From the NCBI GenBank assembly GCA_947647275.1, contig CANSJQ010000002.1:5795-69794 (forward strand): a stretch of 64,000 nt of DNA, written 5' to 3'. The DNA comes from an uncultured Clostridiaceae bacterium (GTDB taxonomy: Bacteria > Bacillota > Clostridia > TANB77 > CAG-508). This document shows, piece by piece, positions 1,164 through 36,671 of this stretch. The stretch's first letter is position 1, and the number at the start of each line of letters is the position of its first letter. Both the position numbers and the translations under genes were made by a program. The notes beneath the pieces were generated by a model that did not search any database, was not told the DNA's origin, and saw nothing but the letters and a program-made list of their open reading frames with translations.

Positions 1164-1212
1164 TTAGGTAGTTTCTTCGAAGGGCGGGTCGCCGATGGCA
1201 ACGACCCCTACA
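1164..1212 (+). repeat. Family-A interspersed element, full form: box1 ttaggtaRtttcttcgaag plus GC hairpin gggtcgccgatggcaacgacccctaca
   Basis: Direct read; the hairpin arms gggtcg/cgaccc are an inverted repeat. Near-identical copies at 22790, 25603 and 30521. Confidence 0.8.
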
Positions 1213-1290
1213 ATTAATCTTTTTATTTAATTGAAAAGAGATGTTCTTATTGTGTCTATTTAACACAATAATGAGCATCTCTTGTATTTT

Positions 1291-3318
1291 CTAATTTAGA
1301 ATTTCTTCAAAATATTCATCTATTTTTGCTATTAACTCTTGTTTTACCTCTTCCATGTTCATGCCTTCTACTTGGGCTCCTGCTAGTGTTATGTGTCCAC
1401 CACCGCCCATTTTTTCTAAAATTATTTGAACATTTATATCGCCTATTGAACGTCCACTTATGCAAATTTTATCTCCTAAGTTTCCTATTACAAATGATGC
1501 TGTTATATCACTTATTGTTAATAGCTCATCTGCTGCTTTTGCACATACTATGTTGGCATTTTTGTCATTTTCTTCGTAGCATGCTATTCCTATTGTTCCT
1601 TTTATTATTTGCGTTTTATTTACTATTTCTGCTATTTTGTTATATGTTTGTAAATCGCTTTGGAACCATTTTTTTATTTTTATAATATCTATTCCGCATT
1701 TTCTTAAGAAAGCTGCTGCTTCAAAGGTTCTTACACCTGTTTTAAATGTAAAGTTTTTTGTATCCACCATTATTCCTGCATATAGTCCTTCTGTTTCTAT
1801 TTGGCTTAAATTTATATCTTTTTCTGAATATTCTATAAGTTCTGTTACTAATTCACATGCAGATGATGCATATACTTCATGGAAAGTAAGTATTGCATTT
1901 TCAATAAAGTCTGTACTTCTCCTATGATGGTCTATTATTACTATTTTATTTGTTTTTTCTAATAATTCTGGTGCTTGAACATAACTTGTTTTGTGAGTAT
2001 CTACTACAACTAGCAATGTATTTTCATCCATTATGTCTAAGGCTTTATCTTTACTAATTATAATCTCTTTATATTCTTCATTTTCTTTTGCAGTTTCTAT
2101 AAAATTATCTAACCCAATTCCAGAAGTTTCATTTACTATATATGTTTCTTTTCCTATAGTTTTAGACATACGATATATTCCAAATGCAGCTCCCATAGCA
2201 TCTATGTCTGAATTTGAATGTCCCATAATTACTATATTTTTAGCTTCAAGCATTAATTCTTCTAAAGCATGTGCTACTATTCTTGCTTTTACTTTTGTTC
2301 TTTTTTCTATTTCTTGAGTTCTTCCACCAAAGAATGTATATTTTCCTTCTTTTCTGATAATTGCTTGGTCTCCGCCTCTACCTAATGCTATATCTATTCC
2401 TCCTTGTGCTAATTTATATTTTTTATAATTTGTTTCTCCTTCATTTGATATAGCAATACTAAGTGTTGATTGTATTTTTCCTGGTATTGATATTTCTTTT
2501 ATTTTATCTAGTATCGTAAATTTTTCTTCTTCTAATTTTCTTAAATATTCTTGTTCTAATATTATTATAAATGTATCTCTTTCAGCTTTTACTATTAAAC
2601 ATTTAAATTCGGTTGCCCAGTCATATAAGCTTTTTTCTATTGTTGCTGTAATTATAGCTCTATCTTCTGCACTTACTCTTTGCATTATCTCTTCATAGTT
2701 GTCTATCATAATTATTCCTACACATATTTGGGAATTATTATATTTGTTTTGTAATTCTATATTTTCTGTTTCATCTATGAAATATAAACTAGTCATATAC
2801 TCATTTTCTTTTTTATCATCTTTAGACTTAGTATATTCTCCTAATACATTATAAGTTTTTTCTCCTATAATAACTTGTTTCTTTATTAATTCTTTTAATT
2901 CTTTTTTATTTTCTTCACTACTATTTTCTATTTCTAATTTTAATTCTTTTACTATATTATTTAAGTATGTATTTATATCAATATTAGCAAATTCTTTAAT
3001 AAATTTTGAACTTTTCCATATAATATTTCCATCTGTTTCTATTACTATTAATGGAAATGGTGAATTTATTAAAGTATTTTTAGCTACATTATCTACTACA
3101 CCTGTTAAATCTTTTATATGACTTGATAACTCTGCTTTCCTTTTATTATTAGTCCAATATGCATACATTACTATTAATATAAATGACAATATTGCTGGCA
3201 TGATAAAACGTGGTTCATAAAAGCATATGGTTACTAATAAAATTGCAATTATTAATAAATATATTTTTGTTTTTGAAACTAATTTATCAAAAACTTTTAT
3301 ATTATTATTCTTTGGCAT
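1291..3318 (-). CDS. gdpP: cyclic-di-AMP phosphodiesterase GdpP (2 TM + PAS + degenerate GGDEF + DHH/DHHA1)
   Basis: 675 aa with N-terminal TM helices, DHH motif (IVIIDHH) and GHSNSDIDAMGAA block. gdpP-rplI-dnaB synteny matches B. subtilis yybT-rplI-dnaC. Upstream sequence reads AAAGGAGAAATTT ATG (RBS-like GGAG with ~7-nt spacer). Confidence 0.85.
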   Translation of the reverse strand: MPKNNNIKVFDKLVSKTKIYLLIIAILLVTICFYEPRFIMPAILSFILIVMYAYWTNNKRKAELSSHIKDLTGVVDNVAKNTLINSPFPLIVIETDGNIIWKSSKFIKEFANIDINTYLNNIVKELKLEIENSSEENKKELKELIKKQVIIGEKTYNVLGEYTKSKDDKKENEYMTSLYFIDETENIELQNKYNNSQICVGIIMIDNYEEIMQRVSAEDRAIITATIEKSLYDWATEFKCLIVKAERDTFIIILEQEYLRKLEEEKFTILDKIKEISIPGKIQSTLSIAISNEGETNYKKYKLAQGGIDIALGRGGDQAIIRKEGKYTFFGGRTQEIEKRTKVKARIVAHALEELMLEAKNIVIMGHSNSDIDAMGAAFGIYRMSKTIGKETYIVNETSGIGLDNFIETAKENEEYKEIIISKDKALDIMDENTLLVVVDTHKTSYVQAPELLEKTNKIVIIDHHRRSTDFIENAILTFHEVYASSACELVTELIEYSEKDINLSQIETEGLYAGIMVDTKNFTFKTGVRTFEAAAFLRKCGIDIIKIKKWFQSDLQTYNKIAEIVNKTQIIKGTIGIACYEENDKNANIVCAKAADELLTISDITASFVIGNLGDKICISGRSIGDINVQIILEKMGGGGHITLAGAQVEGMNMEEVKQELIAKIDEYFEEILN

Positions 3319-3384
3319 AAATTTCTCCTTTTACTCTTTCATACATTATAATTGTACTATTTTTTAGTATTTTTGTCAAATAAT

Positions 3385-3420
3385 AAAAAATGAGCAATTA
3401 TTCACTGCTCATTCGTTTTT
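3385..3420. terminator. bidirectional rho-independent terminator (aatgagcaattattcactgctcatt with U-runs on both strands)
   Basis: Hairpin plus flanking T/A runs between gdpP start and the Gly-rich gene end. Confidence 0.5.
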
Positions 3421-3422
3421 CA

Positions 3423-5180
3423 TTAATTATCTTTTACAAATGTTCCTGTTGAAATGTTTCCTATGGTTATACATCCTGTACCTCCGTTGCCTCCATTAAA
3501 CTTAATATTTCCACTAATTCCACCAGGTCCTCCACTTCCACCATTAACATTTATATAGCCTCTAGTTATATTAGATTTATAGAATATATTTATGCTTCCT
3601 CCGCCAGACGCTCCTCCGCCTGCACTCTTTGCGCTTCCTCCATTACTACCATTTGAAGTTATTGTTCCATTGTTCTTAATTGAGTTTGCAATTATTGTAA
3701 GTAGTCCTCCTGTTCCTGTCGCGCCATTATTTCCATAATACCTTCCGCCAAATCCTGTTCCTCCTGGATTACCAGCGCCTCCTCCTGCTGAATCATAGTT
3801 TTTACTGCTTCCTTTTCCGTCTCCTCCTGCTCCTCCATTTGAACTTACATTTACTCCTGCTATATCGTCAGCACCTCCACTTCCAACTCCACCAGAGTAT
3901 GATGTTCCACTTCCTCCTGCCTTTGAAGCCCTATTTATTCCTGCACCTGCGCCACCACCACCAGTTCTTCTAGCAGTTCCTGCTACTCCATTGTTCGCAG
4001 TTTTATTTACTACACCTGCTCCTCCTGCTCCTCCTATTGCTGGTACATATTCATAAGTGTTATCTTCGTTTTTGTGTAGGTATACATTCTCACCTGTTTG
4101 GTTTACTGTTCCTTTTGCTGTCATTGTTATATTTCCATTATTTGTTAATGTTCCTGCACAATATATAAACATTCCTTTTTTAGTGCATAAATATGCTACT
4201 CCATTTATTGTTGCGCTTGTTCCTGTTGGACTTATTGTTACTCCACTATTTATTGTTAAATCTCCATTATATTTTAGTATTAACATTCTTTTTTCTGAAT
4301 TAGTTTTTCCTGTTCCTGTATATTTTGTGTTACCTATTACTATCTCATTTGAAGCTTCATAATTTGCATCTTCATTATAATTATATAATTCTACTGGATA
4401 ATCAATTGTGTTTCCTTCACCATTATATGTTATTCTAAATATATAATTTCCTGATTCTAAATTATTATTTTCTACACATGCTAATATACTCTCTCCTTCT
4501 ATTACTGTATTCTCTTGTTTATATGTTACAGTATCAAGTATTGTGTGTTCTACATTAATTATAATCTCATTTCCTATACTATCTACTTGCCTTAAAGCTA
4601 CCTTTACATCTCTATTTCCTAATGCTTCTAATATTTGGTAATCATCTAATCTTATTATATTTGTATAATTAACCCATGCTGAGCTATCTCCTATCATATA
4701 TTGCTTTACTGCACTTCCTGCTTTGTAATTTACTGTTAATGCTTGTTGTGTTTCTGTTTCTCTTGTTAAATTATAATCTATCATATCTAAATAAAATTGG
4801 TTATTTATTTGTATTGTTCTTTCTATTTCTTCTCCTTTTGTATTTATTGCCTTAAATGTTAAACTTTCTTTTCCTGTTATATCTGTGTTATAGTCAAATG
4901 CTACTTTTGTTTTTCCATTACAATATAACTCCATTTCATTATTGGGATATATTATTTTTTCTATTCCATTTTCTGTATCTTCTGCTATTACTAGCATTGC
5001 TGTTTTTCCATTTACATGTTTATATACTTCATAGCTTATCTGTTTTACTATTTCTTCTTTATTGTTATTGTCTATAATCCTATCTATTACTCCTGTTCGT
5101 TTCAAAACTACTAATGTTATTGACATTACAAATAATAATGCTATTATGATTATTAAAATTATTTTCTTTTTATTTTGCAT
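3423..5180 (-). CDS. membrane-anchored Gly/Asn/Thr-rich surface protein, hypothetical (possible beta-helix or adhesin-like)
   Basis: ORF track gives 3423..5255 with a TTG start and no RBS. The internal ATG at 5180 (MQNKKKIILIIIIALLF...) is preceded by AAGGAG and opens with a signal-anchor helix. C-terminal half is low complexity (GGAGGAG..., GSGGxGG). Confidence 0.55.
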   Translation of the reverse strand: MQNKKKIILIIIIALLFVMSITLVVLKRTGVIDRIIDNNNKEEIVKQISYEVYKHVNGKTAMLVIAEDTENGIEKIIYPNNEMELYCNGKTKVAFDYNTDITGKESLTFKAINTKGEEIERTIQINNQFYLDMIDYNLTRETETQQALTVNYKAGSAVKQYMIGDSSAWVNYTNIIRLDDYQILEALGNRDVKVALRQVDSIGNEIIINVEHTILDTVTYKQENTVIEGESILACVENNNLESGNYIFRITYNGEGNTIDYPVELYNYNEDANYEASNEIVIGNTKYTGTGKTNSEKRMLILKYNGDLTINSGVTISPTGTSATINGVAYLCTKKGMFIYCAGTLTNNGNITMTAKGTVNQTGENVYLHKNEDNTYEYVPAIGGAGGAGVVNKTANNGVAGTARRTGGGGAGAGINRASKAGGSGTSYSGGVGSGGADDIAGVNVSSNGGAGGDGKGSSKNYDSAGGGAGNPGGTGFGGRYYGNNGATGTGGLLTIIANSIKNNGTITSNGSNGGSAKSAGGGASGGGSINIFYKSNITRGYINVNGGSGGPGGISGNIKFNGGNGGTGCITIGNISTGTFVKDN

Positions 5181-5373
5181 AATTTTATTTTTCTCCTTAG
5201 TTTTATATTTGTTAATTATATTATATATTTTACCAATATCATATTTTTTAGTCAATGCTTTAATTATTTAAATTAATCTATAGTTTATATAATATTTTTA
5301 ATAAAACTATTTATGGTAAGATTTTATTTATTCTTTCACTCTTCTGTAATAAATTACAGTAATTTTAGCATAT

Positions 5374-6669
5374 TTATTGTTTATTTTTTATTCTTTCTAT
5401 TATCTTTTTACATTTATCATATATATCATTTTCTTCTATTTTTAACTTCTTGTTCTCCATTAAGATTTTTCCATTTACTATTGTTGTTTCTATATTATTT
5501 CCTTTTACATTATATACTATGTCTGATACTATGTCATTTACTGGTTTTGTTACAACTGTGTCTAAGTTTAGTATTATTAGGTCTGCTTGTTTTCCTTCTT
5601 CTATATTTCCTATTTTTTCTTCTAATCCTAATGCTTTTGCTCCATTTATTGTTGCTAGCTTTAATACTTCGTATGCTGGCATTTGTGTTGGCTCTTCAGT
5701 TATTCCTTTTTGAAGAAGTGCTGTATATTTCATACTTTCAAATAAATCTAAGTTACTTCCGCTTCCTTGTCCATCTGTTCCTATGCTTACATTTATTCCT
5801 TCTTTTATCATTTTTGATATATTTGCTATTCCACAACCTAGTTTTAAGTTACTTACTGGGCAGTGTGATACACTTACGTTTTTGTTTTGAGAAAGTTTTG
5901 CTATTTCTTCTTCATTTAATTTAACTGCATGTGCCAATGTTATTTTTGTATCCTTAAATTCTTTGTTTAATACATCTATTGGCTTTTCATTATATGCATT
6001 TTCAATATCTTCAACTTCTTTTGTATTTTCACAAAAATGCATGTGTATTGGTAATTCATTTTCTTTTGCAAATTTAATACATTTTTGCACATATTCTCTA
6101 CTTGATGTGTATAATCCATGTATTCCTACATTTAAACTTATACAATCATTATAGTTTTTATATTTCTCTACTAATTTTCTTAATTCTTCGAGTCTTTCTT
6201 CTCCTAATTTTTCATTTCCTGCATCCATTAGTGTTCTTGTTGTTTGAAGTCGTATTCCGCATTCAATAGCTGCTTTTATTATATCTTCTGTCATGAAATA
6301 CATATCATTTATTGTAGTTGTTCCTGTTTTAATCATTTCTAAAAATGATAGGTATGATGCATAATATATATCTTCATTTGTTAATTTATCTTCCATTGGC
6401 CATATCTTTTTTGTAAGCCAGTCTTGCAGACTGTATCCATCTACTGTTTCCCTAAATATGCTCATTGGAACATGTGCATGGGTATTTATTAAACCTGGCA
6501 TTACTATTTTTCCTTTTGCATCTAATACTTTATCTGCATCTATAGCTTCTATGTTGTTTGCTATTTTTGTTATTTTGCTATCTATTATTTCTATATCTAT
6601 ATTTTCTTCAATCTTTTTTCTTTTTTCACTCATTGATATAAGTGTTGCATTTTTAATGACTATTTTCAT
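5374..6669 (-). CDS. amidohydrolase-superfamily nucleoside/nucleobase deaminase (MtaD/SsnA-like)
   Basis: 431 aa; metal-binding HxH (GLINTHAHVPMS), later HMHFCE and GTDG motifs typical of the amidohydrolase_1 family. Confidence 0.65.
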   Translation of the reverse strand: MKIVIKNATLISMSEKRKKIEENIDIEIIDSKITKIANNIEAIDADKVLDAKGKIVMPGLINTHAHVPMSIFRETVDGYSLQDWLTKKIWPMEDKLTNEDIYYASYLSFLEMIKTGTTTINDMYFMTEDIIKAAIECGIRLQTTRTLMDAGNEKLGEERLEELRKLVEKYKNYNDCISLNVGIHGLYTSSREYVQKCIKFAKENELPIHMHFCENTKEVEDIENAYNEKPIDVLNKEFKDTKITLAHAVKLNEEEIAKLSQNKNVSVSHCPVSNLKLGCGIANISKMIKEGINVSIGTDGQGSGSNLDLFESMKYTALLQKGITEEPTQMPAYEVLKLATINGAKALGLEEKIGNIEEGKQADLIILNLDTVVTKPVNDIVSDIVYNVKGNNIETTIVNGKILMENKKLKIEENDIYDKCKKIIERIKNKQ

Positions 6670-6792
6670 ATATTTTCTCCTTACTTTTTATTATTTACCT
6701 TTTTCATTAGGAATTATATTATTTTATCACATTTTTGTAAACATTTTCTTTAGTTTTATCAAATTTTTGTAAATTATATTATTATAATGTTA

Positions 6793-6838
6793 GCAAAACT
6801 CACTTGAATTACAAGTGAGTTTTGCTATATTTTTTTGT
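6793..6838. terminator. rho-independent terminator hairpin gcaaaactcacttg-aatt-acaagtgagttttgc plus T-run
   Basis: Perfect 14-bp stem followed by tatattttttt. Confidence 0.55.
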
Positions 6839-6898
6839 TACTTTTGCCCTATTTTCTAACTGTTTAGTAGTGAGCTCCCGCTTCTTTTCTTTCTTCAT
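6809..6898 (-). CDS. small highly basic 29-aa ORF (MKKEKKRELTTKQLENRAKVTKKYSKTHL) with strong RBS
   Basis: AAGGAGGA sits 7 nt upstream of the ATG. The 3' end runs into the terminator hairpin at 6793-6825. Not in the ORF track because it is under 60 aa. Confidence 0.3.
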   Translation of the reverse strand: MKKEKKRELTTKQLENRAKVTKKYSKTHL

Positions 6899-7036
6899 TT
6901 AAATGTCCTCCTTAAAATATTAATTTTGCTTAGTTTTCTAGTTACTTTCATAACTCTCCATTTTGGTGCTAAAATAGGAGTTTTATAAATTTTATGCTAT
7001 CATATCACATTTACATAATTTCAGCAATACTCTATT

Positions 7037-7085
7037 ATAAAAATGAGATTTTTGGGTGCGTCCCAAAAATCTCATTGTTTTTTTA
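7037..7085 (-). terminator. rpoC terminator (aatgagatttttggg-tgcg-cccaaaaatctcatt, U-rich on both sides)
   Basis: Hairpin begins directly after the rpoC stop codon at 7083-7085. Confidence 0.6.
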
Positions 7086-10000
7086 TTCTGCTACTACTTC
7101 TTCAGAAGTTTCTTCTGCTTCAGTTGTTTCTTGTTCTTCGTTTTCTGTGCTTATTTTTGTGTTTTTGTATTTTGCTAGACCTGTTCCTGCTGGTATTAGT
7201 TTTCCTATTATTACGTTTTCTTTTAGTCCTATTAGTTCATCTACTTTTCCTTTTATTGCGGCTTCTGTTAATACTCTTGTTGTTTCTTGGAATGATGCGG
7301 CTGATAGGAAGCTGTCTGTTGCTAGTGATGCTTTTGTGATTCCTAAAAGTACTCGTTTTCCTGTTGCTGGGCGTTTTCCTTCTTCTATAGCTTTTTCGTT
7401 TATGTCTTGGAATTCGTACATGTCTACTAGTGAACCTGCAAATAGGTGTGTATCTCCGTTGTCTTCTACTCTTACTTTCTTAAGCATTTGTCTACCTATT
7501 ACTTCTATATGTTTGTCGTTTATATCAACACCTTGGTTTCTATAAACTCTTTGTACTTCTTGTACTAAGTAGTTGTATACTCCTTCTGGTCCTTTTATTA
7601 AAAGTAATTCGTTTGGATTTATTGAACCTTCTGTAAGTGGTTGACCTGCAACTACTTCGTCTCCTTCTTTTACTTTTAGTTTTGAACCAAATGGTATTAC
7701 ATATGTTTTGCTGTCGTCTTTTGATGTTACTACAAGTTCTTTCTTTTTCTTGTTTTCTTGTAGTTTAACTTTACCATCTATTTCTGTTATTATAGCAACA
7801 CCCTTAGGTTTTCTTGCTTCAAATAACTCTTCAACCCTTGGAAGACCTTGTGTAATGTCGGCAACACCAGCAACACCACCAGAGTGAATTGTTCTCATTG
7901 TAAGCTGTGTACCTGGCTCACCTATTGATTGTGCAGCTATAATACCAACTGCTTCACCAATGTCGGCTTCTTTTTGGCTAGATAGACCCATACCATAACA
8001 TCTTGAGCATACTCCGTTTTTTGTTCTACATCCAAATACTGAGCGCACTCTTACTTTTTCTATTCCAGCACTTACTATTTGGTCTGCCATACTTGCTGTA
8101 ATCATTGTGTCTGGAGTTGCTATTACTTCTTTTGTTTCTGGGTTTATTATATCTTCTAATGGGTATCTTCCTGTTATTCTTTCTTCTAAGCTTTCTATTA
8201 CTTGGTTTCCATCTTTTATTGCTGTAAGTTCTATTCCGTCGTGTGTTCCACAGTCATGTTCTCTTACGATAATATCTTGTGAAACGTCTACTAATCTTCT
8301 TGTTAAGTATCCTGAATCGGCTGTTCTTAACGCTGTATCTGAAAGACCTTTACGAGCACCATGGGCAGATATAAAGTATTCTAGAGCATCTAGACCTTCC
8401 CTGAATGATGACTTGATTGGTATTTCTACTGTTCTACCTGTTGTACTTGCCATAAGTCCACGCATACCTGCTATTTGTTTTAATTGGTCTAAGTTACCAC
8501 GGGCACCTGAATCTGACATTATATATAATGGGTTTAATGCATCAAAGTTGTTTTTCATGGCAACACTGACATCACTTGTAGCTCTTTCCCATATTTTAAT
8601 TACTGATTGGTATCTTTCCTCTTCTGTAATTAAACCACGTTTATATTGTTTTAATACATTCTCTACTTGACTAGCTGCATCTTCTAATATTGTTTTCTTT
8701 TCTTCTGGAACTTTTGCGTCTTCTATTGAAACTGTTATACCACTTGTTGTTGAATGTTTGAAACCTGATGCTTTGATGTAGTCTAATAGTTCTGCTGATC
8801 TAGATAAACCATGTTTTTCTATACATTTTCCAACTATTTTTCCTAACATTTTCTTATTTGTTACAAAGTTGATTTCTGGTTCAAATTCATTTTCTGGATT
8901 TGTTCTATCTACAAAACCTAGGTCTTGTGGTATTTCTTTATTAAATATTATTCTACCAACTGTTGTTTCAACTTTCTTATGTCTTTCATTTCCTTCTTCG
9001 TCTACTTTACTCATTCTTACAAATATTTTAGCATGCATTCCTACTTCTTTATTTTCGTAAGCCATTATTGCTTCTTCTGGAGATGAGAAGTAATTTCCTT
9101 CTCCTGTTTCTCCTTCTACTTCCATTGTTAGGTAGTAGTTTCCTAATATCATATCTTGTGATGGTACTGTTACTGGTTTACCATCTTGTGGTTTTAATAG
9201 GTTGTTTACTGATAACATTAGGTATCTTGCTTCTGCTTGTGCTTCTGGTGATAGTGGTAAATGTATAGCCATTTGATCACCGTCGAAGTCAGCGTTGAAG
9301 GCTGTACATACTAATGGGTGTAATTTTATTGCTCTACCTTCTACTAATACTGGCTCAAATGCTTGTATACCAAGTCTATGTAATGTTGGAGCACGGTTTA
9401 ACATTACTGGATGGTCTTTAATTACTTCTTCTAATATATCCCATACTTCTGGGCGTAATCTTTCTACCATTCTTTTTGCATTTTTAATGTTGTGTGCTAA
9501 TCCTCTTTCTACTAATTCTTTCATAACGAAAGGTTTGAAAAGTTCTACTGCCATTTCTTTTGGAACACCACATTGATATATTTGAAGTTCTGGTCCTACA
9601 ACTATAACTGAACGTCCTGAGTAGTCAACACGTTTTCCTAGTAAGTTTTGACGGAAACGTCCTTGTTTACCTTTTAGTAGGTCTGATAGAGATTTTAATG
9701 CTCTATTTCCAGCACCTGTTACTGGTCTTCCTCTTCTTGAGTTATCTATTAAAGCGTCTACAGATTCTTGTAGCATTCTTTTTTCATTTCTTTTTATGAT
9801 TTCTGGTGCCCCAAGTTCTATTAATCTTTTTAATCTGTTATTTCTGTTTATAACTCTTCTGTATAAGTCGTTTAGGTCTGATGTAGCGAATCTACCACCA
9901 TCTAATTGTACCATTGGTCTTAACTCTGGTGGAATTACTGGTACTACATTCATTATCATCCATTCAGGTCTATTTCCTGATAATCTGAATGATTCTACTG

Positions 10001-10637
10001 TATCTAATCTTTTTATTAATTTTGCTTTCTTTTGCTCACTAGCTTTTTCTAGTTCTTTCTTTAAGCTTGCTGATAATGCTTCTAAGTCTATTTCTCTTAA
10101 TAGTTTTTCTAATGCTTCTGCTCCCATTTCAGCTTTGAAACTGTCATAACCATATTTTTGAACAGCCTCTGTGTATTCTTTTTCTGTTAATACTTGATAT
10201 TTCATTAATCCTGAAGTACCTTTATCTGTTACTATATATGAAGCAAAATAAACTATTTTTTCTAGGTTTCTTGGTGAAATATCTAACATTAAAGCTATTC
10301 TACTTGGTATACCTTTGAAGTACCAAATATGTGCAACTGGCGCTGCAAGCTCTATGTGTCCCATTCTTTCACGTCTTACTTTAGATTTAGTTACTTCAAC
10401 ACCACATCTATCGCAGACAATACCTTTATAACGAACTCTTTTATATTTACCACAATGGCATTCCCAGTCTTTTGTTGGTCCAAATATTCTTTCACAAAAT
10501 AGTCCATCTTTTTCTGGCTTTAGAGTTCTATAATTAATAGTTTCTGGTTTTTTAACTTCACCTTTTGACCATTCTCTAATTTTTTCGTCTGATGCTAATC
10601 CAATTTTTATTTTATCAAACATCTCTAATTCATCCAC
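7083..10637 (-). CDS. rpoC: DNA-directed RNA polymerase subunit beta'
   Basis: 1184 aa with canonical RpoC blocks (Zn-finger CHCGKYKR..., NADFDGDQM catalytic motif). GTG start at 10637 with GGGGAGG 9 nt upstream. Confidence 0.95.
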
Positions 10638-10667
10638 TATTTTTAGCCTCCCCTTAATTTTATATTG

Positions 10668-10702
10668 TAGGGGCGATTATTAATCGCCCGTGCTACAACG
10701 GC
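10668..10702 (+). repeat. GC-rich palindrome ggggcgatt-att-aatcgccc followed by gtgctacaacgg
   Basis: Perfect 8-bp inverted repeat in the rpoB-rpoC spacer. Confidence 0.4.
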
Positions 10703-10726
10703 TTTTATTTTAGAGGTTGGAAAATC

Positions 10727-10788
10727 TGGTAAATTCTTCGAAGTATTTACCTTATATTCTAACTTCTAACTTCTAACTTCTGTTTTGG
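10727..10788 (+). repeat. Family-A long variant: box1 (ggtaaattcttcgaag) + tatttacc + tandem (ctaactt)x3
   Basis: Same architecture at 21190-21255. A related gaagtt tandem run in reverse orientation lies at 62395-62420. Confidence 0.6.
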
Positions 10789-10883
10789 CTTTCATTAAAA
10801 TTCAAAAATAATCCACTGCTGAGCAATTCCTTTTTGTCTATTTTTTTATTTATTTTGAAAATATTTAATTAATTTGATTGGTT

Positions 10884-10938
10884 AGGGCATAATTTGGTAA
10901 ATTCTACTAGGTATTCCTTACCAATCAAGCCCCTACAT
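10884..10938 (+). repeat. Family-B element: gggcataatttggta...taccaatcaagcccctacat (imperfect terminal inverted repeats)
   Basis: Copies at 18259-18310 and 22690-22743 with the same termini. Confidence 0.7.
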
Positions 10939-10993
10939 ATTTTTAAAATTTTCTGTTATTTTAAATATTTGCATTAATTATAGTTTCGTATAT

Positions 10994-11025
10994 CCAGGTC
11001 GCCACCTTCGGTGACCCGCATACCC
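10994..11025 (+). repeat. Family-A hairpin-module variant ccaggtcgccaccttcggtgacccgcataccc
   Basis: gtcgcc...ggtgacc inverted repeat, 14 nt upstream of the rpoB stop. Confidence 0.45.
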
Positions 11026-11038
11026 TTTAACCTAAGTC

Positions 11039-14000
11039 TTATTCTAGTCCGTCATTTTCTAAATTGTCTTCTGCTAAGTCTGTGTCGAAAATTTCTGCAT
11101 CGTCGTCGTCATCTAACTCTGTGAATAATTCGTCGTCGTCCATAGCTTCTTCGTCAACATCTAAAAGTATTTCCTCTGTGTCTTCATCTATCTCTATATA
11201 GTTTTCGTCTAATTCATTTTGTTGTAATACATCTTCTCCTATTTTTGCTTCTTCGTAGTCTATTCCTTCATCTATATGTTCTTGTAGTTCTAATTCTTCG
11301 TTTTCTTCTGAATATAAACGTACGTCTAAGCCTAATGATTGAAGTTCTTTTATTAATACTTTGAAACTTTCTGGTACGCCTGGTTCTGGTACATTTTCTC
11401 CTTTAACAATTGCTTCATATGTTTTAACACGTCCAACAACGTCATCTGATTTAACTGTTAACATTTCTTGAAGTGTATATGCTGCTCCATATGCCTCTAA
11501 TGCCCAAACTTCCATCTCTCCGAAACGTTGTCCACCGAATTGTGCTTTACCTCCTAGTGGTTGTTGTGTTACTAGTGAGTATGGTCCAGTTGAACGAGCA
11601 TGTATTTTGTCATCTACTAAGTGATGTAGTTTTAACATGTACATTACACCAACTGTTACTGGGTTATCAAATTTTTCACCTGTACGTCCATCTATTAATA
11701 TTGATTTTCCGTCTTCTCTTAGGCCTGCTTCACGTAGTAATTCTTTTATTTCTTCGTCTGATGCACCATCAAATACTGGTGTTGCAACTTTCCATCCTAG
11801 TGCTTTTGCTGCCATACCTAAGTGAACTTCTAAAACTTGACCTAAGTTCATACGTGATGGTATACCTTGTGGATTTAATACTATATCTACTGGTGTTCCA
11901 TCTTCTAAGAATGGCATGTCTTCTACTGGAAGTATTCTTGAAATAACACCTTTGTTACCATGACGTCCAGCCATTTTGTCTCCAACTGATATTTTTCTCT
12001 TTGTTGCTATATAACAACGTATTACTTGATTTACACCAGGTCCTAATTCATCTGAATTATCTCTAGTGAATATTTTAACATCTACTATTGTTCCTGCTTC
12101 TCCATGTGGTACTCTTAAAGATGTATCTCTTACTTCTCTTGCTTTTTCTCCAAATATTGCACGAAGTAATCTTTCTTCTGCTGTAAGTTCTGTCTCTCCT
12201 TTTGGAGTAACTTTACCTACTAGAATATCTCCTGGTCTTACTTCTGCACCTATTCTTATAATTCCGTTTTCGTCTAGGTCTTTTAGTCCATCATCACCAA
12301 CATTTGGTATATCACGTGTTATTTCTTCTGGACCTAATTTTGTATCACGACATTCACAATCATATTCTTCTATATGTATTGATGTGTATACATCTTCTTT
12401 AACTAATCTTTCACTAATTAATATAGCATCCTCATAGTTGTAACCTTGCCATGTTGTAAAGGCAATAAGTACGTTTCTACCTAATGACATTTCACCGTTC
12501 TTTGTAGCTGGTCCATCTGCTAATATGCTTCCTGCTGTTACTTTTTCTCCTCTTACAACTACTGGTCTTTGGTTTATACATGTACCACCATTTGTTCTTT
12601 TAAATTTACGAAGTTTATATGTGTCTATTTCTCCTTTTTTATTTTTAACTTTAACTTCGTCACTGCTTACTTTTTCTACTACACCGTCATTTATAGCTGT
12701 TACTGTAATTCCTGAGTCTTTTGCTGCTCTATATTCTATACCTGTACCTACTATTGGAGATTCTGGCATTAATAGTGGAACTGCTTGACGTTGCATGTTA
12801 GATCCCATAAGTGAACGTTTAACGTCATCATGCTCTAAGAATGGTATCATGGCTGCTGCAACAGAAACTAATTGTTTTGGAGATACATCAACATAGTCTA
12901 CTTGTTCTCTATCTACCTCTGTTATTTCTGTTTTGTTACGTACTTTAATTCTCTTGTTTACAAATTTTCCATCTTTATCTAATGGCTCAGATGCTTGAGC
13001 TATGATGTAATTATCTTCTTGGTCTGCTGACATGTATTCAACAATATCTGTTACTTTTCCTGTTTCTTTATCTACTTTTCTATATGGTGTTTCAACAAAT
13101 CCATATTCATTTATTATAGCAAATGATGAAAGTGCTGAAATTAAACCGATATTTGGTCCTTCAGGAGATTCAACTGGGCAAAGTCTTCCATAGTGTGTAT
13201 AGTGAATATCACGAACTTCGAAGCCTGCTCTTTCTCTTGATAAACCACCAGGTCCTAAGGCTGAAATTCTTCTTTTATGTGTAAGCTCTGATAATGGGTT
13301 TGTTTGATCCATAAATTGTGATAATTGTGAGCTTCCAAAGAATTCTCTAATTGATGATGTTATTGGTTTTGTGTTTATTAATGTTTGTGGTGTTACTACG
13401 TCTAAGTCTTGTATTGTCATTCTTTCACGAACAACTCTCTCTAATCTTGTTAAACCAATTCTAAATTGATTTTGTAGTAATTCTCCAACACATCTTATAC
13501 GTCTATTTCCTAAATGATCTATATCATCTATTGTTCCTATTCCATTGTCTAAGTTTAATACATAGTTTATTGAAGCTATAATATCTTCATTAGTAATGTG
13601 TTTAGGTACTAATTCTTCTTTTCTTTCAGATATTACTTTGTGTAAATCTTTTTTGTCAGTTGTATCTAATATAGATTTTAATACTTCGTAATTTACTTCT
13701 TCTTTGAAGTGTAAGTCACTTATATCAACATCTGTTACAACTTTATAAATATTTACTGTTCCATTTCCTATAATTCTTACTTTTTTATCATTTACTTTTA
13801 CATCTACTATATTTAAACCTGTATTTTGTATTTCTTCTGCTACTTCTTTTGATATTGCAGAATCTTTTTCTACTAATACTTCTCCTGTAGATGGATCTAT
13901 AATATCTTCAAATGCTACTTTTCCAGCTATTCTTGTTGCTAAACTTAATTTTTGGTTGAATTTGAATCTACCAACTTTTGCTAGGTCATATCTTCTTTCA

Positions 14001-14779
14001 TCAAAGAATAGACCATTAAATAAGTTTCTTGCAGCGTCTACTGTTGGAAGTTCACCTGGTCTTAATTTTTTGTAAATTTCTATTAATGCTTCATCTTGAG
14101 TTTTAATAGTGTCTTTTGCTATTGTAGCTACTATTTTAGCTTCTTCTCCAAATAGAGACACAATTTGCTCGTCTGTTGTTAAACCTATTGCTCTTAATAA
14201 ACATGTTACTGGTATTTTTCTTGTTCTATCTACCCTTGCCCAGAATACGTCGTTTCCATCTGTTTCATATTCTATCCATGCTCCACGAATTGGCATAACT
14301 GTTGATGTAAATACTTTCTTACCTGTTTTGTCAAATTCATATGCATAGTAACATCCTGGTGAACGTACTAACTGACTAACTACAACTCTTTCAGCTCCAT
14401 TTATAATAAATGTTCCGCTTTCAGTCATTAATGGGAAATCTCCAAGATAAATTTCTTGTTCTTTTATTTCTCCTGTTTCACGGTTAATTAAACGTACCTT
14501 TACGTGTAATCTTGTAGAATATGTAGCATCTCTTTCTTTTGCTTCTTCTACTGTATATTTAGTTTTTTCTTCCATGTAGTAATCGAAAAATTCAAGAACT
14601 AAATTACCTGAGTAGTCCACTATTGGTGAAATATCTTTTAATACTTCTCCTAACCCTTCTTCTACGAACCAGTCGTATGAATCTTTTTGGACTTTAATAA
14701 GATTTGGCATCTCAACAAAATCGCCAATTTTTGCAAACGTTTTACGTGTGCTTTTTTCGTTTTTGATATCTTTTATCAA
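11039..14779 (-). CDS. rpoB: DNA-directed RNA polymerase subunit beta
   Basis: 1249-aa ORF with canonical RpoB blocks. The ORF-track GTG start at 14788 overlaps the AGGAG RBS. TTG at 14779 (AGGAG + 7 nt) is more plausible, giving MIKDIKNEK... Confidence 0.9.
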
Positions 14780-14820
14780 AACAATCACTCCTAAATAAAA
14801 TTTAAGCAGAAAAAAAATTT

Positions 14821-14886
14821 GTCAGGGGACACCCCTTACCCTTTTGTCACTCCCACTTGGGATAAGGAATGTCCCCTACCCTTGTG
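14821..14886 (+). repeat. Family-C-like palindromic element in the rpoB leader (ggggacacccc...gtcccc; terminator-like ggggtgtcccc + U-run on the transcribed strand)
   Basis: Sits about 40 nt upstream of the rpoB RBS. On the minus strand it reads aaggggtgtcccctgacaaatttttttt. Confidence 0.45.
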
Positions 14887-15102
14887 AATAAGTGTTCAAA
14901 TAGTTATAGTATTCTCCTAACTTATACTTTAGTGAATTGAATTTATTATAAAAAGAAGTCCTTCTCGTAATTAATTTTATATTATAAAAACCTCCCCTTC
15001 CTGCTCATAAAAAGATTGATTTTTACATATAGAATTAATACAATTCCTCTTCTTTTCAAATTACGTAAACATTAAAATGGGCAAATAGCCCTATACTATT
15101 TT

Positions 15103-15132
15103 AGTATACTTTAAAAAGTATAAGCTTGTCAA
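15103..15132 (-). promoter_or_regulatory. candidate sigma-A promoter for rpoB (-35 TTGACA, 18-nt spacer, -10 TATACT)
   Basis: Minus strand reads TTGACAagcttatactttttaaagTATACT. Would give a ~300-nt leader containing the element at 14821-14886. Confidence 0.35.
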
Positions 15133-16590: not shown

Positions 16591-16684
16591 GCTCTTTTTC
16601 CTTTCATTACATATTTATTTAAGTCATTTCTTTGAATACTGGACGACAACTAGTCTCCTATACAATTATTTTTAACTTTTTTTA

Positions 16685-17599: not shown

Positions 17600-17795
17600 A
17601 TTGTTATTATATTAGATTTTTAATTAACGTGCAATATTTTTTCTTAAAGTCGTTGCAAAATACTATTGGTAGAATTTATGTATTTCTTAAGTATTAATAA
17701 ATAAGGTGAAATTTAATAAATAATACTAATATTTCTTACAAATTAAACTTCTGCGGTTTCAAGTTAAAATAGCTTACTTTCCTATAAAATAAATA

Positions 17796-18133: not shown

Positions 18134-18258
18134 ATGTTACAAGCATTTATAATTTTACTCTATTTATATTAAAAAGTCAATATCTTTGCATCATTTTTTT
18201 TAAAATTCGTTTTTTTATTACAATTTATAGTAACAAATGTTACTTTTTATTTATAACT

Positions 18259-18310
18259 AGGGGCATAACTTGGTATTCCTATATGATTTCCCTACCAATT
18301 AAGCCCCTAT
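18259..18310 (+). repeat. Family-B element ggggcataacttggtattcc...ccctaccaattaagcccctatat
   Basis: Same termini as 10884 and 22690. Confidence 0.7.
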
Positions 18311-18344
18311 ATTATACAAATATTTCTTAATTTTAAAATTTATG

Positions 18345-20410: not shown

Positions 20411-20443
20411 AGTTATCCCCCAATTATTATCGTTTTTTCTTGT

Positions 20444-21073: not shown

Positions 21074-21189
21074 TTTCTAATTTCCTCTCTTGTATTATTA
21101 TGACATATAAATTATAATTCTTATTTAGTTTTTTTTCAACTATTTTTTTTGAAATTGAGGTTATAAGTTAGATGTTGGATGTTAGATTC

Positions 21190-21255
21190 TTAGGTAATCT
21201 CTTCGAAGTATTTATCCTATTTTCCTAACTTTTAACTTTCAACTTCTATTTTGTT
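21190..21255 (+). repeat. Family-A long variant: ttaggtaatctcttcgaag + tatttatcc + (taactt)-like tandem
   Basis: Abuts or overlaps the walK-like stop codon (21246-21248). Parallel architecture to 10727-10788. Confidence 0.6.
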
Positions 21256-33414: not shown

Positions 33415-34158
33415 TTATAATTTTACGCCAACTACTTTTCTAATATATGAATAAGAACTATTCCCCCATCCACTCTCATTACTATTTGTAGTCATCAAAA
33501 TAGAGTTAGTATCTATATCCATTTTGATAGTAGCCATTAAATAATTTGTTCCATGTGTATAATCAGCAATCATTTCATAAGACTCACTTGTATCAAAAAC
33601 TACATTTCCAATATTATTTGCTGCAGTATAATATACTAGTAAAAAATCATAATCTTTTATATTTTTTTCTAATTTAATATCTTGAGTTCCAGATTCATTA
33701 CTTGACCATAGTATTTCTTTTTTATCTTTAACATCTGCAACTTTTACTCCATTTATACTTGCCAATTGTAGTGATGAATTTATTTCAAATTCATATGGAT
33801 ATTTATTCAATTTTGTAAATATAGAATTTGGATTTTCTCCTACTTCATATTTTATACTTGCCATTTGGCTTTTTTCAGTTACATATGTTATTTCACTATC
33901 ATTTTTTAATATTTCTGATAATTCTTTTAATGTTGGCATTTTTTGCTTTTCAGCATAGTTATTCATTTGCGCTGTTGTTATTTTTAAGTTAATTATTTCT
34001 GTTGCTGTTTGTTTATTAGTTGCTTCTTTTGCATCATTTGCTCTTGTTAATATTCCATTATTTCCTAAACTTAAATATATTGCTAAACTTACTAATATTA
34101 TTAATACTACTATTGTTATTACTAATGATATTAGAGTTATTGCTTTTTCTTTTTTCAT
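33415..34158 (-). CDS. secreted/membrane-anchored protein with degenerate prepilin-like N-terminus (MKKEKAITLISLVITIVVLIIL); C-terminal domain unknown
   Basis: N-terminus resembles a class-III signal (KKGFTLIE...) with G to A and E to S substitutions. Paralogous N-terminus in 51634..53130. Confidence 0.5.
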   Translation of the reverse strand: MKKEKAITLISLVITIVVLIILVSLAIYLSLGNNGILTRANDAKEATNKQTATEIINLKITTAQMNNYAEKQKMPTLKELSEILKNDSEITYVTEKSQMASIKYEVGENPNSIFTKLNKYPYEFEINSSLQLASINGVKVADVKDKKEILWSSNESGTQDIKLEKNIKDYDFLLVYYTAANNIGNVVFDTSESYEMIADYTHGTNYLMATIKMDIDTNSILMTTNSNESGWGNSSYSYIRKVVGVKL

Positions 34159-34300
34159 TTGTATCCTCCTTTATGATACTTTTATTATAAAAGAATTATA
34201 TCTCCTATTATTTTTAAAGTCAATATTGCTCATGATACTTTCGTCATTCTTTCTTTTGTTTTTTGTATGACATAATTGTGTAATAATTTAAGATGGTTTT

Positions 34301-34483
34301 ATGATTAGAGAATATAGATTAAAAAATAAATTAACTCAAAAAGAACTTTCTGAAAGGCTTGACATTAGTTGGACTCACTTACAAAATTTAGAATATAATT
34401 AATAAAGTACAACAGCAAAAGCCTAAAAAAAGATTATTAATGTTTTAGATATTCCTAATGAAGAAATTATTAATTATTTATAA
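34301..34483 (+). pseudogene. decayed XRE-family HTH regulator (three in-frame TAA stops at 34400, 34403, 34424)
   Basis: MIREYRLKNKLTQKELSERLDISWTHLQNLEYN**...*KKIINVLDIPNEEIINYL*. An HTH_3 N-terminal half and typical C-terminal tail are in one frame, interrupted by nonsense codons. Divergent from the pilin-like gene, as the intact pair at 53237 is. Confidence 0.55.
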
Positions 34484-35181
34484 TCCTTTTCTAGCTTACT
34501 ATTTGTATATATTTTTGCGATTATTTCTAACTGTTTTTTGTTTTCTTCTGATATATTAAATGAATATAGTTTTTTTGCAGGTATCATACATATGTATTTT
34601 AGTGCATTTTTTGTAGATTCTGATATTACAATTGTCCCTGTGTCTTGTTTGCTACAATTTTCACATTTTAATCCATTATCTTTAAAACTAAAATAATTTA
34701 CTTCTTCTTTTTCACATATGCAACATTTATCTAACCTTGGTTTAAAACCTAATAAGCACATAAGCCTCATTTTGAATATTGATACTACAAATTTTAAGTC
34801 TATATCAGTTTCTGCAATTACATATAATGTATTTAAGTATAATTGCAAAATTTTATATGTATTTTGATTTTCATATGTTACATCTTGTATAATTTTTGTA
34901 ATTTGTGCTGCATAATTTAACTTATCTAGGTCAACTCTTAAATTATAAAATAACTCTATTGTGTCACATGAATTTAATGTATATGTATGTGAACCTTTAA
35001 ACATCATATATTCTGCAAAACATAGAAATTGCGTGCCTGCCATTAGTTGGCTTTTGGGCCTTCTTGCACCTTTGGCAGAACACGATATTTTTCCGTTTGG
35101 AGTTAGTATTGTTAGCATTTTATCAAAATCGCCCATATTATTTTCTGCAATTATTATCCCTTTTGTTTTTACTGTTCCCAT
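34474..35181 (-). CDS. recO: DNA repair protein RecO
   Basis: 235 aa; N-terminal OB-fold region and C-terminal Cys cluster (CxxC...CxxC); era-yqzL-recO synteny. Confidence 0.8.
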   Translation of the reverse strand: MGTVKTKGIIIAENNMGDFDKMLTILTPNGKISCSAKGARRPKSQLMAGTQFLCFAEYMMFKGSHTYTLNSCDTIELFYNLRVDLDKLNYAAQITKIIQDVTYENQNTYKILQLYLNTLYVIAETDIDLKFVVSIFKMRLMCLLGFKPRLDKCCICEKEEVNYFSFKDNGLKCENCSKQDTGTIVISESTKNALKYICMIPAKKLYSFNISEENKKQLEIIAKIYTNSKLEKDYK

Positions 35182-35191
35182 TTTTCACCTT

Positions 35192-35347
35192 TTATTGTAA
35201 ATTTTCTTTTATTTCTGTTATTAATTCATTTTCTGTTAATCTTTTTTTTTGTATATCTTTTTCTATGTTTTCTACTTTTGTTAATTCTAAGTATGAATCT
35301 ATACTTCCTGTATTTTTAAATGTATTCCATGCCATTTGTTTTATCAT
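35192..35347 (-). CDS. yqzL: YqzL-family small protein (51 aa)
   Basis: MIKQMAWNTFKNTGSIDSYLELTKVENIEKDIQKKRLTENELITEIKENLQ; AGGGTGA RBS; conserved position between era and recO in Firmicutes; missed by the ORF track. Confidence 0.6.
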   Translation of the reverse strand: MIKQMAWNTFKNTGSIDSYLELTKVENIEKDIQKKRLTENELITEIKENLQ

Positions 35348-35412
35348 AAGAATTCACCCTCTCTTTTGTCATTTCTTAATGTTATTTTTATCCTTTTTAA
35401 ATATTTTATTCA

Positions 35413-36321
35413 TTAATTTAATTTAAATTTTTTAATAATTGAATCATTATTAATCCAATCTTCTTTTACTTTTACCCAAATTTTCAAATTAACTTTTGTT
35501 CCTAACATATTTTCTAAATCTTTTCTGGCATATGTTCCTATTTTTTTTAACATACTCCCATTTTTTCCTATTATTATTCCTTTATGAGAATTTCTTAAAC
35601 AATAAATGATAGCTTCTACATCATATATTTCTTCTTTCTCTTTAGTTCTTCTAAATTTCATTTTTTCAGTTTCTATATATAATCCGTGTGGTACTTCATC
35701 ATCTAAAAATTTTAATGCTTTTTCTCTAATTACTTCTTCTACTAGTTGCCTTGAAGTCTGGTCAGTATATTCTTCTATATCATAATATGCAGGCCCTTCT
35801 TTTAAGTTTTTTTCTATTTCTTTTATAATCAATTCTGTATTTTCTTTTTTGGTTGCTGATACTGGTATTACTGCTGCATAATTATATTCTTTTCTATACA
35901 ATTCAATTAAGTGTAATAGTTCTTCTTTATTTTTTACCATATCTATTTTGTTTATTATTAGTATTGTTTTTCTTTTTGCCTCTTTTATTTTTTCTAAAAT
36001 TTTCGAATCTCCGCGTCCTATCTCTTTTGATGTTCCATCTATTACAAATAAAATAACATCTACATCTCCTATAAAATTAAAAGCTGTATCTAACATTGTT
36101 TCATTTAGTTTTGTTTTTGGCTTATGAATTCCTGGTGTATCTATTATTACTATTTGTGAATTTTCTCTATTTACTACCCCTCTTATTGCAGTTCTTGTGG
36201 TTTGTGTTTTGTTTGCAACTGCTGCTACTTTTTCGCCAACTAATGCATTTACTATTGTCGATTTTCCTACATTTGTTCTTCCTATAATTGAAACAAACCC
36301 TGATTTGAATATTTCACTCAT
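35413..36321 (-). CDS. era: GTPase Era
   Basis: G1 GRTNVGKST, G3 DTPG, G4 NKID, C-terminal KH domain; AGGAGG RBS. Confidence 0.9.
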   Translation of the reverse strand: MSEIFKSGFVSIIGRTNVGKSTIVNALVGEKVAAVANKTQTTRTAIRGVVNRENSQIVIIDTPGIHKPKTKLNETMLDTAFNFIGDVDVILFVIDGTSKEIGRGDSKILEKIKEAKRKTILIINKIDMVKNKEELLHLIELYRKEYNYAAVIPVSATKKENTELIIKEIEKNLKEGPAYYDIEEYTDQTSRQLVEEVIREKALKFLDDEVPHGLYIETEKMKFRRTKEKEEIYDVEAIIYCLRNSHKGIIIGKNGSMLKKIGTYARKDLENMLGTKVNLKIWVKVKEDWINNDSIIKKFKLN

Positions 36322-36340
36322 TTTTTCCTCCTAGTTTCTA

Positions 36341-36389
36341 TTGTCCCATTGGGGACGTTTTTAAATGGGTAATCTGTCCCTAATGGAAC
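36341..36389 (+). repeat. Family-C element (tgtcccattggggacg...tgtccctaatggaac) at or just after the predicted era transcription start
   Basis: On the minus strand the -10 TATAAT (36397-36402) with -35 TTCTAC at 17-nt spacing lies just upstream of the element. Near-identical to 58121-58168 in the opposite absolute orientation. Confidence 0.7.
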
Positions 36390-36671
36390 ACATTATATTA
36401 TATATAAGTAGCTAAATTTGTAGAATTTAGTGTTATATTTTATTTTTTTATATTATAGCATATGCAAACAAAAAAAGGAACTAATTTTTATATGTTCCTT
36501 TAATCTTTAGCTTAGTTTTAGTATTCTCTTCTTAGTTTAATATATTGCTAATGCTATTTTTGCACTAATTTCTTCGAAGAGTGGATAATTATAGTTTATT
36601 TATAAATTAAATTATTTTCATAGAATACAAATTAAAATAAAGACGACTTTTTAGGTCGCCTTTGTTTAATT

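Follow-up and report, generated by a model that had tools for sequence, protein, structure and literature searches.

GTAG-headed hairpin repeats in an uncultured Clostridiaceae bacterium: a probable REP family associated with RAYT-like enzymes

The window analysed here, i.e. a whole 64,000-nucleotide stretch of contig CANSJQ010000002.1 from an uncultured Clostridiaceae bacterium (28% GC), carries a dispersed family of repeats built from a palindromic box, box1, and a GC-rich hairpin. Exact protein matches assign the DNA to an uncultured Clostridia bacterium seen in gut metagenomes only. We conclude that this hairpin, part of the repeat named Family A in an initial annotation of the DNA, is probably a repetitive extragenic palindrome (REP) of the GTAG type within a mosaic system, common in uncultured low-GC gut Clostridia and related bacteria, that resembles bacterial interspersed mosaic elements (BIMEs) and REPINs, units of two inverted REPs, and that the system is associated with REP-associated tyrosine transposases (RAYTs). 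In structure the hairpin is what defines a GTAG REP, a short GC-rich palindrome with an unpaired head on one strand and a mostly extragenic location. At the level of the family, membership of a REP/RAYT system is supported, and the link to an IS200/IS605-type TnpA proposed in the initial annotation holds up, as RAYT-like genes of two other genomes contain this REP class within them.

Repeat modules and the GTAG head

Every place where the initial annotation had put a copy holds a real repeat, and the counts are well above those obtained from dinucleotide shuffles. Box1 (TTAGGTARTTTCTTCGAAG, up to three mismatches) is matched six times with 0.03 matches expected (1164, 10725/10736, 21190, 22790 and 25603), and the hairpin pattern four times with 0 expected (1185, 22811, 25624 and 30530). 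The 8-mer CTTCGAAG, the core of box1, occurs six times compared with an expected 0.36, and five of these occurrences, including the one at 36572, are inside repeats. A repeat finder joined the three full copies into one 59-nt family with 81-85% identity. The looser hairpins at 391 and 10994, folding at -6.3 and -4.8 kcal/mol, were seen by reading the sequence; both had been reported before, together with the copy at 36566 and the tandem runs, and all of them are present. Rfam 15, searched over the whole window at the gathering score, gave two tRNAs only and matched no repeat.

On the minus strand the hairpin reads 5'-T-GTAG-GGGTCGCC-N6-GGCGACCC, an imperfect palindrome, and every good copy in the window starts with T-GTAG. 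The GTAG head with a GC stem is found in five of the six hairpin copies (391, 1185, 22811, 25624 and 30530) and also at 10667, while it is changed to ATAG at 18258 and absent at 10994. The latter copy reads GGTCGCC..GGTGACCC-GCATACC, has lost the CCCCTACA tail, and shares its GCATACC inner flank with the doublets at L022 and L042 (L labels denote loci from other assemblies compared here). GTAG-headed copies have stems of 6-9 bp and fold as DNA at -6.3 to -9.0 kcal/mol. The window contains about 11 GTAG-headed hairpins in 64 kb, all in the first 32 kb. Eight of the 11 are intergenic, every one between co-directional genes, 3' of a stop codon and 5' of the next promoter-like site. Three longer hairpins (10880-10938, 18258-18313 and 22683-22743) end in CCCCTA(C/T)A and form one repeat-finder family with a common head.

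The consensus in other genomes is GGGTCGCCG-AGGG-CGGCGACCC, and the same loci also contain sibling hairpins whose stems differ and whose head is unchanged (GGGCGATT.., GGGCGGAC.., GGGACGCA..). A scan made without any sequence pattern over the window and the low-GC loci gave 215 perfect GC-rich hairpins, of which 174 have a 5' GTAG on one strand and not on the other; about half of the hairpins are copies that the pattern had selected. REPs are defined as short palindromes, rich in GC, that have a GT(A/G)G head on one of their strands (PMC2817692, PMC3733652), and the earlier description of the family as a REP-like structural repeat is borne out by this head. In the systems tested, the GTAG head is needed for cleavage by TnpA-REP, and in E. 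coli for binding too (PMC8266576). GTAG REPs, their intragenic copies and their link to RAYTs have all been described (PMC2817692, PMC3733652, PMC8266576).

Since box1 is palindromic, its search pattern matches both strands at 10725/10736, and the copies consisting of box1 only have no defined orientation. In other genomes, REP doublets belonging to several classes have CTTCGAAG at their exact centre (L024, L086, L104), and it is also found directly next to single REPs, as ATTTCTTCGAAGARC-GGG. Box1 is therefore the palindromic linker of REP doublets, the full copies of the window are a REP with an attached linker half, and the family is a mosaic of modules, like BIMEs. Without any REP, CTTCGAAG forms the centre of a long hairpin with 7-nt tandem arms, e.g. 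in L063, a design that is matched in the window at 10700-10785 and 21160-21250. The arrays are constant in their period of 7, and the unit varies among genomes (GAAGTTA, AATGAAT, TAATCCC). The tandem tails had first been read as a 6-nt repeat, (taactt)n; their actual period is also 7 (10757-10781, 21226-21245 and 62404-62436).

An exact pattern of 21 specified bases was scanned over one genome per species, 596 Gb of DNA. It matched at least 114 loci, from about 37 genomes by accession prefix among the matches listed, compared with a chance expectation of ~0.3 matches (our estimate, for uniform base composition). Nearly all hosts of the matches listed are gut bacteria of animals and humans, uncultured Clostridia or Oscillospiraceae, and the 27-mer is identical in genomes of 20-65% GC. 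There were 0 matches to the REP pattern in viral contigs, and a phage origin of the REPs was rejected on this ground.

Both orientations are found in the other genomes and inverted doublets are common. The GTAG heads point outward in the doublets at L042 (TGTAGGGGTCGCCGCCCTCGGCGACCCGAAAATATTGGTATGCGGGTCGCCGAGGGCGGCGACCCCTACA), L083, L096 and L098, and the spacer is 16 nt in L042, L083 and L098. The repeated REPIN/BIME unit, two inverted REPs with a short spacer, is absent from the window, where REPs of both orientations occur only in the rpoB-rpoC spacer and come from different classes. Among 96 low-GC singletons at the loci, 12 are well inside a long open reading frame (ORF). In dnaE of three metagenome-assembled genomes (MAGs; L114 ~2900-4100 on the minus strand, L013 and L073), VGVAAFGDP is read in frame between the PHP and palm regions, which parallels the REPs reported in replication and repair genes (PMC3733652). 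About 25 residues upstream of it these proteins have GIPSNGAPT, resembling the second-class hairpin (GGGATTCCTT...GCCCCTACA).

RAYT-like genes with internal REP pairs

Two pattern loci, L017 (Lapin-013 bin23) and L020 (SIG349), contain RAYT-like genes that carry the same GGGTCGCC REP class inside, and the pattern matched these loci because the REP sits within the gene. With the REPs removed, the products match Pfam Y1_Tnp with 28 bits (threshold 23), their best NCBIfam family is REP_Tyr_transpos (E 1e-18 to 1e-20), and the sole PDB sequence match is 4ER8, the TnpA-REP of E. coli. The HUH motif is present as MPNHIH, and the catalytic tyrosine aligns with the TnpA-REP segment VDYIY. For a natural homologue, P0011, the AlphaFold model (pLDDT 81) has its best match in 4ER8 with a TM-score of 0.65, above the TnpA proteins of ISDra2 and IS608; the REP-coded peptides are in low-confidence loops of this model. 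The two genomes contain at least 14 and at least 8 loci with this REP, the RAYT locus included. In both genes a GTAG-forward REP follows the first strand (YFITICT..ILGKI) and a reverse REP comes just after the HUH motif. An extra base at a REP edge shifts the frame in both, and these genes may be dead.

A homologue search gave 5,904 relatives. Homologues of 149 aa have no insert, while the longer ones have in-frame REP peptides at the same two positions and in matched classes (VGVALLGDP/GSPRSATPT, VGANCVRP/GRTQFAPT, VGVDAHIDP/GSMWASTPT). By the NCBIfam scores of eight sequences, this is a divergent subfamily. In five of the five RAYT loci that were read as DNA (Table 1), the HUH-coding segment is enclosed by two inverted REPs, the first of which is just 5' of the start codon in L130. 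The paired REPs are exact reverse complements in L017, L020 and L126. Those of L128 have a one-base difference, and those of L130 agree over the GTAG head and the stem-loop (GTAGGGGCGTATTGCATACGCCC), with one mismatch at the base that follows. From one RAYT gene to another the REPs are different. Three of the five loci, like many catalogued homologues, have both REPs in frame and translated (e.g. VGVALLGDP, GSPKSATPT).

A possible, still tentative interpretation, to which we give somewhat less than even weight, is a nested "REPtron": the RAYT gene of this clade would hold its own substrate in its reading frame, and the hairpins would evolve in concert. If true, self-regulation would be possible, or the HUH segment could be an excisable cassette. 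A simple relation of one enzyme to one REP class finds no support in L126 and L130, where the REPs neighbouring the RAYT genes belong to other classes.

Orientation, alternative explanations and known systems

The minus strand of the window is the coding strand and the G-rich ("leading") strand, since it carries nearly all genes from 1 to ~42 kb and the plus-strand GC skew is negative throughout. The GTAG strand is minus in nine hairpins and plus in two. The initial annotation had placed every copy in the same orientation, which does not hold for the inverted copies at 10994 and 10667-10690, the second of which it had not listed. Among the low-GC singletons of other genomes, GTAG lies on the G-rich strand in 66 of 86 loci (p = 7e-7). 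It lies on the main coding strand in 73 of 96 copies, including the window's own four, and compared with the flanking genes there are 36 "same/same" versus 7 "opposite/opposite" cases.

The orientation bias is real, and it fits a replication-coupled single-strand mechanism, because the strand that is G-rich becomes exposed as the template of lagging-strand synthesis, where Y1 enzymes of the IS608 type act (PMC6006769). In such a mechanism a RAYT, i.e. an HUH/Y1 protein like TnpA-REP, would recognise the folded GTAG-bearing single strand, cut it and rejoin it, and by acting mainly on the exposed lagging-strand template it would produce the bias. A RAYT may have moved the window copies in this manner, with replication rather than transcription setting their orientation. 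Only five loci separate replication from transcription, and they are split 4 to 1. The earlier suggestion that orientation follows replication or transcription finds support in its direction, though this split does not tell the two apart.

The family had also been called MITE-like, after the small transposable elements with inverted repeats known as MITEs. These are internally deleted copies of DDE-type insertion sequences (IS), which are moved in trans via their terminal inverted repeats and leave target-site duplications. The elements are short, mostly non-coding, dispersed and modular, as MITEs are, and the copies with box1 only are long imperfect palindromes of 80-90 nt. However, the flanks of the three full copies have neither inverted termini nor duplicated bases, and the core that is conserved consists of one asymmetric hairpin, with the GTAG tag on one strand only. 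There is no DDE transposase beside the copies in the loci inspected by eye, and the sole transposase-like genes given by motif and tblastn searches were Y1/RAYT-like. We therefore consider a MITE origin very improbable. The initial annotation had named copies in both orientations at equal frequency, flanking IS elements as ordinary terminal repeats, as an observation that would speak against its reading; half of this is seen, as both orientations do occur elsewhere, but at unequal frequency, and they are not arranged around ordinary IS elements. Even less credit, practically none, goes to an artefact of chance or composition, i.e. GC-rich patches against an AT-rich background, or part of a protein motif that recurs. 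Some copies are weak (z of -1.6 for the fold at 10994, box1 only at 36566), but the shuffles and the matches in other genomes refute this explanation, and the mostly intergenic location leaves no room for a protein motif.

Alternatively, the hairpins may be selected structural signals in RNA or DNA, such as stabilisers of mRNA 3' ends, terminators or protein-binding sites, kept by selection and gene conversion rather than by transposition, with the orientation bias resulting from a function in the sense transcript. The position of the intergenic copies after a stop codon and before the next promoter-like site agrees with this, as does the fact that in most loci GTAG is on the sense strand for the genes on both sides, and the REPs of E. 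coli are established stabilisers of upstream mRNA (cited in PMC3733652). On the other hand, the sense strand continues after the stem with GCCCTTCGAAG or similar, with no T-run, and terminator and promoter scans of the window called no copy an intrinsic terminator. Copies are also present in coding sequence and within the RAYT gene, and identical 27-mers across genomes of such different GC content argue for a dedicated recognition protein. As an account of the family this explanation is unlikely; it concerns present function and is compatible with a RAYT-driven origin, and the hairpins may have a present role in mRNA.

Several observations weigh against a RAYT-associated REP family. Co-orientation with transcription explains the bias equally well. 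A tblastn search with the two reconstructed RAYTs found no such gene in the 64-kb window, nor in 112 of the 114 pattern loci listed. The RAYT homologues obtain 59-75 bits (eight sequences) when the curated cut-off of NF047646 is 80, even if this is always their best family, and none of the dispersed REPs seen within 20 kb is of the class inside the RAYT genes of L126 and L130. The standard REP/RAYT model has no slot for 7-nt arrays. The stems of the four pattern-matching copies in the window are all imperfect, compared with perfect stems in 86 of 128 elsewhere, and over 12886-33376 (20 kb) independent assemblies of the species have no presence/absence polymorphism and no indel. With their mismatched stems and their stability between strains, the window copies look like old relics that are probably immobile.

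Work on REP/RAYT systems has been confined almost entirely to Proteobacteria. The kind of repeat is already known, and the host phylum is outside those in the available surveys: the survey of GTAG repeats names Proteobacteria, Cyanobacteria, Chloroflexi and the PVC group, and no Firmicutes (PMC3733652). Group 1 RAYTs also occur in Clostridia (PMC5581495). In full-text literature searches we found no paper describing REPs or REPINs in Clostridia.

Like the GTAG REPs that accompany RAYT/TnpA-REP in E. coli, Pseudomonas and Stenotrophomonas (PMC2817692, PMC3733652, PMC8266576), the repeat is a GC-rich imperfect palindrome of 26-29 nt with an unpaired 5' GTAG, it is mostly intergenic between co-directional neighbours, forms inverted doublets and mosaic clusters, has occasional in-frame copies (dnaE included), and is linked to an HUH/Y1 protein whose closest structure is TnpA-REP. 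Unlike them, its hosts are Clostridia (Bacillota), a phylum not named in the 2013 survey, and one 27-mer is common to genomes of very different composition, whereas the known REPs are species-specific. Further differences are that the REP pair is in the reading frame around the HUH-coding segment and not outside the gene, that the RAYTs are under the NCBIfam curated cut-off, and that heptad arrays are found beside many copies.

With REPINs (PMC3116915) and the BIMEs of E. coli the family shares two inverted REPs separated by a short spacer, able to form one long hairpin, mosaics of REPs with other short motifs, and intergenic clusters that are hypervariable between strains. In contrast to both, the window copies are mostly singletons, and the linker is the 8-nt palindrome CTTCGAAG, which also exists without a REP, flanked by 7-nt arrays. 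Rickettsia palindromic elements (RPEs) are likewise palindromes in frame within protein genes, where they add a peptide loop. However, RPEs are 100-150 bp long, mostly have a CGTC tag or none, are found in Rickettsia only and have no known transposase, whereas the unit here is 28-50 nt with a GTAG tag and copies in coding sequence are a minority. Finally, IS200/IS605 elements and their miniature derivatives (palindrome-associated transposable elements, PATEs) also rely on recognition of a hairpin in single-stranded DNA by a Y1 HUH enzyme, make no target duplication, and have an orientation tied to the lagging-strand template (IS608, ISDra2; PMC6006769). Here, unlike in those elements, no distinct pair of left and right subterminal hairpins encloses a cargo, and the enzyme gene is a single copy among housekeeping genes that is not flanked as an IS.

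A REP family present in dozens of uncultured gut Clostridia can serve as a strain-typing marker, and it accounts for genes of these MAGs that are split or "decorated". REP-coded peptides and REP-induced frame changes will be mistaken by gene callers for real proteins or pseudogenes. For the co-evolution of a domesticated Y1 enzyme with its hairpins, RAYT genes that contain REP pairs are a compact system. If true, the REPtron, taken together with the 7-nt arrays and the REP and array peptides in DnaE and GH94 loops, would mean a distinct REP system in Bacillota.

Copies inside genes and comparison between strains

The individual copies, and the RAYT-like genes of other genomes, are listed in Table 1.

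Table 1. Repeat copies in the window and RAYT-like genes with internal REP pairs at other loci.
Feature	Position	Strand	Context and remarks
REP variant GTAGGGGTCGCAGTATTATTAAGCGACCT, 6-bp stem, 11-nt AT loop	391-419	-	between rplI stop and dnaB start
Full copy: box1 (1164-1182) and REP GTAGGGGTCGTTGCCATCGGCGACCCG (1185-1211)	1164-1211	-	flanked by the stop of a gdpP-like gene and the rplI promoter-like site
Sibling-class REP GTAGGGGCGATTATTAATCGCCCG	10667-10690	+	directly 5' of rpoC; -9.0 kcal/mol, z -4.5
Long imperfect palindrome of box1 halves, centre CTTCGAAG (10736)	10700-10785		heptad array TTCTAAC x3.6 at 10757-10781
Second-class long-stem GTAG-headed hairpin GTAGGGGCTTGATTGGTAAGG...CCAAATTATGCCC	10880-10938	-	
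Degenerate REP GGTCGCCACCTTCGGTGACCC-GCATACC	10997-11024	+	inverted; GTAG head lost
Second-class long hairpin, ATAG head	18258-18313	-	between ferredoxin-like gene and tRNA-His
Box1 palindrome, centre CTTCGAAG (21201)	21160-21250		arms GTTAGAT x3 (21167-21187) and TAACTTT x2.9 (21226-21245)
Repeat cluster	22683-22879	-	second-class hairpin 22683-22743, box1 22790-22808, REP GTAGGGGTCGCTACCTTCGGCGACCC 22812-22837, then the array below
Heptad array ATTATTC x5.1	22844-22879		part of the 22683-22879 cluster
Full copy: box1 and REP	25603-25650	-	in frame in the GH94 part of the cyclic-beta-1,2-glucan-synthase-like gene, read as VGVAAFGDPHSEETTQ
REP GTAGGGGTCTCCGCCATCGGCGACCC, GCATACC inner flank	30531-30556	-	at +1 frame shift between ORFs of 887 and 1509 aa, same gene
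Decayed in-frame REP, CRGVAFGDS	31810-31843	-	same glucan-synthase-like gene
Box1 alone CTAATTTCTTCGAAGAGTGG, no hairpin	36562-36581		
Heptad array GGAAGTT x4.7	62404-62436	+	no box1, no hairpin; unit is that of the 10757 arms on the opposite strand
RAYT-like gene with internal REP pair	L017 4601-5141	-	
RAYT-like gene with internal REP pair	L020 568-1055	-	
RAYT-like gene with internal REP pair	L126 10001-10567		
RAYT-like gene with internal REP pair	L128 7848-8555		
RAYT-like gene with internal REP pair	L130 9959-10513		

The repeats had been described as having no coding capacity. This is true for most copies, but three are inside one gene: the ORFs 30444-33107, 25946-30475 and 24757-25806 (minus strand) are parts of a single cyclic-beta-1,2-glucan-synthase-like gene of ~2,770 aa (24757-33107). 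The REP and box1 at 25603-25651 are in frame (NVGVAAFGDPHSEETTQ) in a loop of the GH94 domain, which is 78 aa long in the window versus 52 aa in 65 of 90 homologues. Gene callers give two overlapping ORFs because the frame moves by +1 across the REP at 30531-30556, and from this frame change the insert at 30530 would have a length of 3n+1. A search for the empty site of this insert returned only C-terminal (GH94) fragments as homologues, in which the transmembrane region is not covered. There is a separate 1-nt frameshift at ~25975 in the same gene. Sequencing errors were rejected as the cause of the frameshifts, the one at 25975 being identical in L118 and L121 and the one at 30530 identical in L118, all independent assemblies. 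The copy at 31810-31843 departs from the consensus mostly by C-to-T changes.

Database homologues of the glucan synthase are often fragments too (470-480 aa, 1050-1071 aa). In the GH94 homologues P0160, P0189 and P0154 the loop that corresponds to window 25560-25700 contains peptides such as QPPTSNLQLPTSNFQPLTS and SDIQHPTS, which read like translated heptad arrays (CCAACTT/TAACTTC). From this resemblance, array-armed hairpins also seem to insert in frame, making the GH94 loop a candidate hotspot. In another strain (L119, 1-8740) the same gene is reduced to a 149-aa GH94 fragment, and the adjoining DNA encodes a large serine recombinase and a Mob_Pre relaxase and also, as in diversity-generating retroelements, a reverse transcriptase accompanied by a bAvd gene.

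Turnover is concentrated at one hotspot, the rpoB-rpoC spacer. Between the window (10638-11038) and L001 (2282-2697) the repeat cassettes in this spacer are entirely different around a conserved 90-nt core, in two strains whose flanking genes are ~99.8% identical. The L001 spacer has (GTAGATTG)x3 and a GGGACGGTTC hairpin, as well as (AATGAAT)n/(ATTCACT)n arms, and in another species (L126) the spacer has three GTAG REPs. In the same species several short-read contigs stop within the 22683-22879 cluster, at 22720 (L121, L122 and L125), 22763 (L124) and 22845 (L123), as expected if repeats break assemblies; the REP family explains these breaks.

Some further differences and repeats were seen. 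Window 33377-34108, with most of the ORF 33415-34158, is missing from strain L118. The 5' end of this ORF (34079-34172) has 79% identity with that of another gene (53042-53135), and from sequence the two look like paralogous signal-peptide regions. In L130 (2066-3015 and 4159-5305), the housekeeping genes spoIIIAA and spoIIIAE are each called as two ORFs with single-base frame changes, in spoIIIAA inside the P-loop; these may be assembly errors or real decay. A different repeat type, with a GGGAC/GTCCC palindrome (TGTCCCNAATTGGGGAC) and no Rfam match, is found in the window at 36330-36385 and 56195-56250, in the 5' leader of two minus-strand genes, and a related element follows rpoB in L001 (2315-2395). 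Finally, a direct repeat of 161 nt with 75% identity (51209-51369 and 51552-51712, 343 nt apart) is located upstream of the ORF 51634-53130 and overlaps its end.

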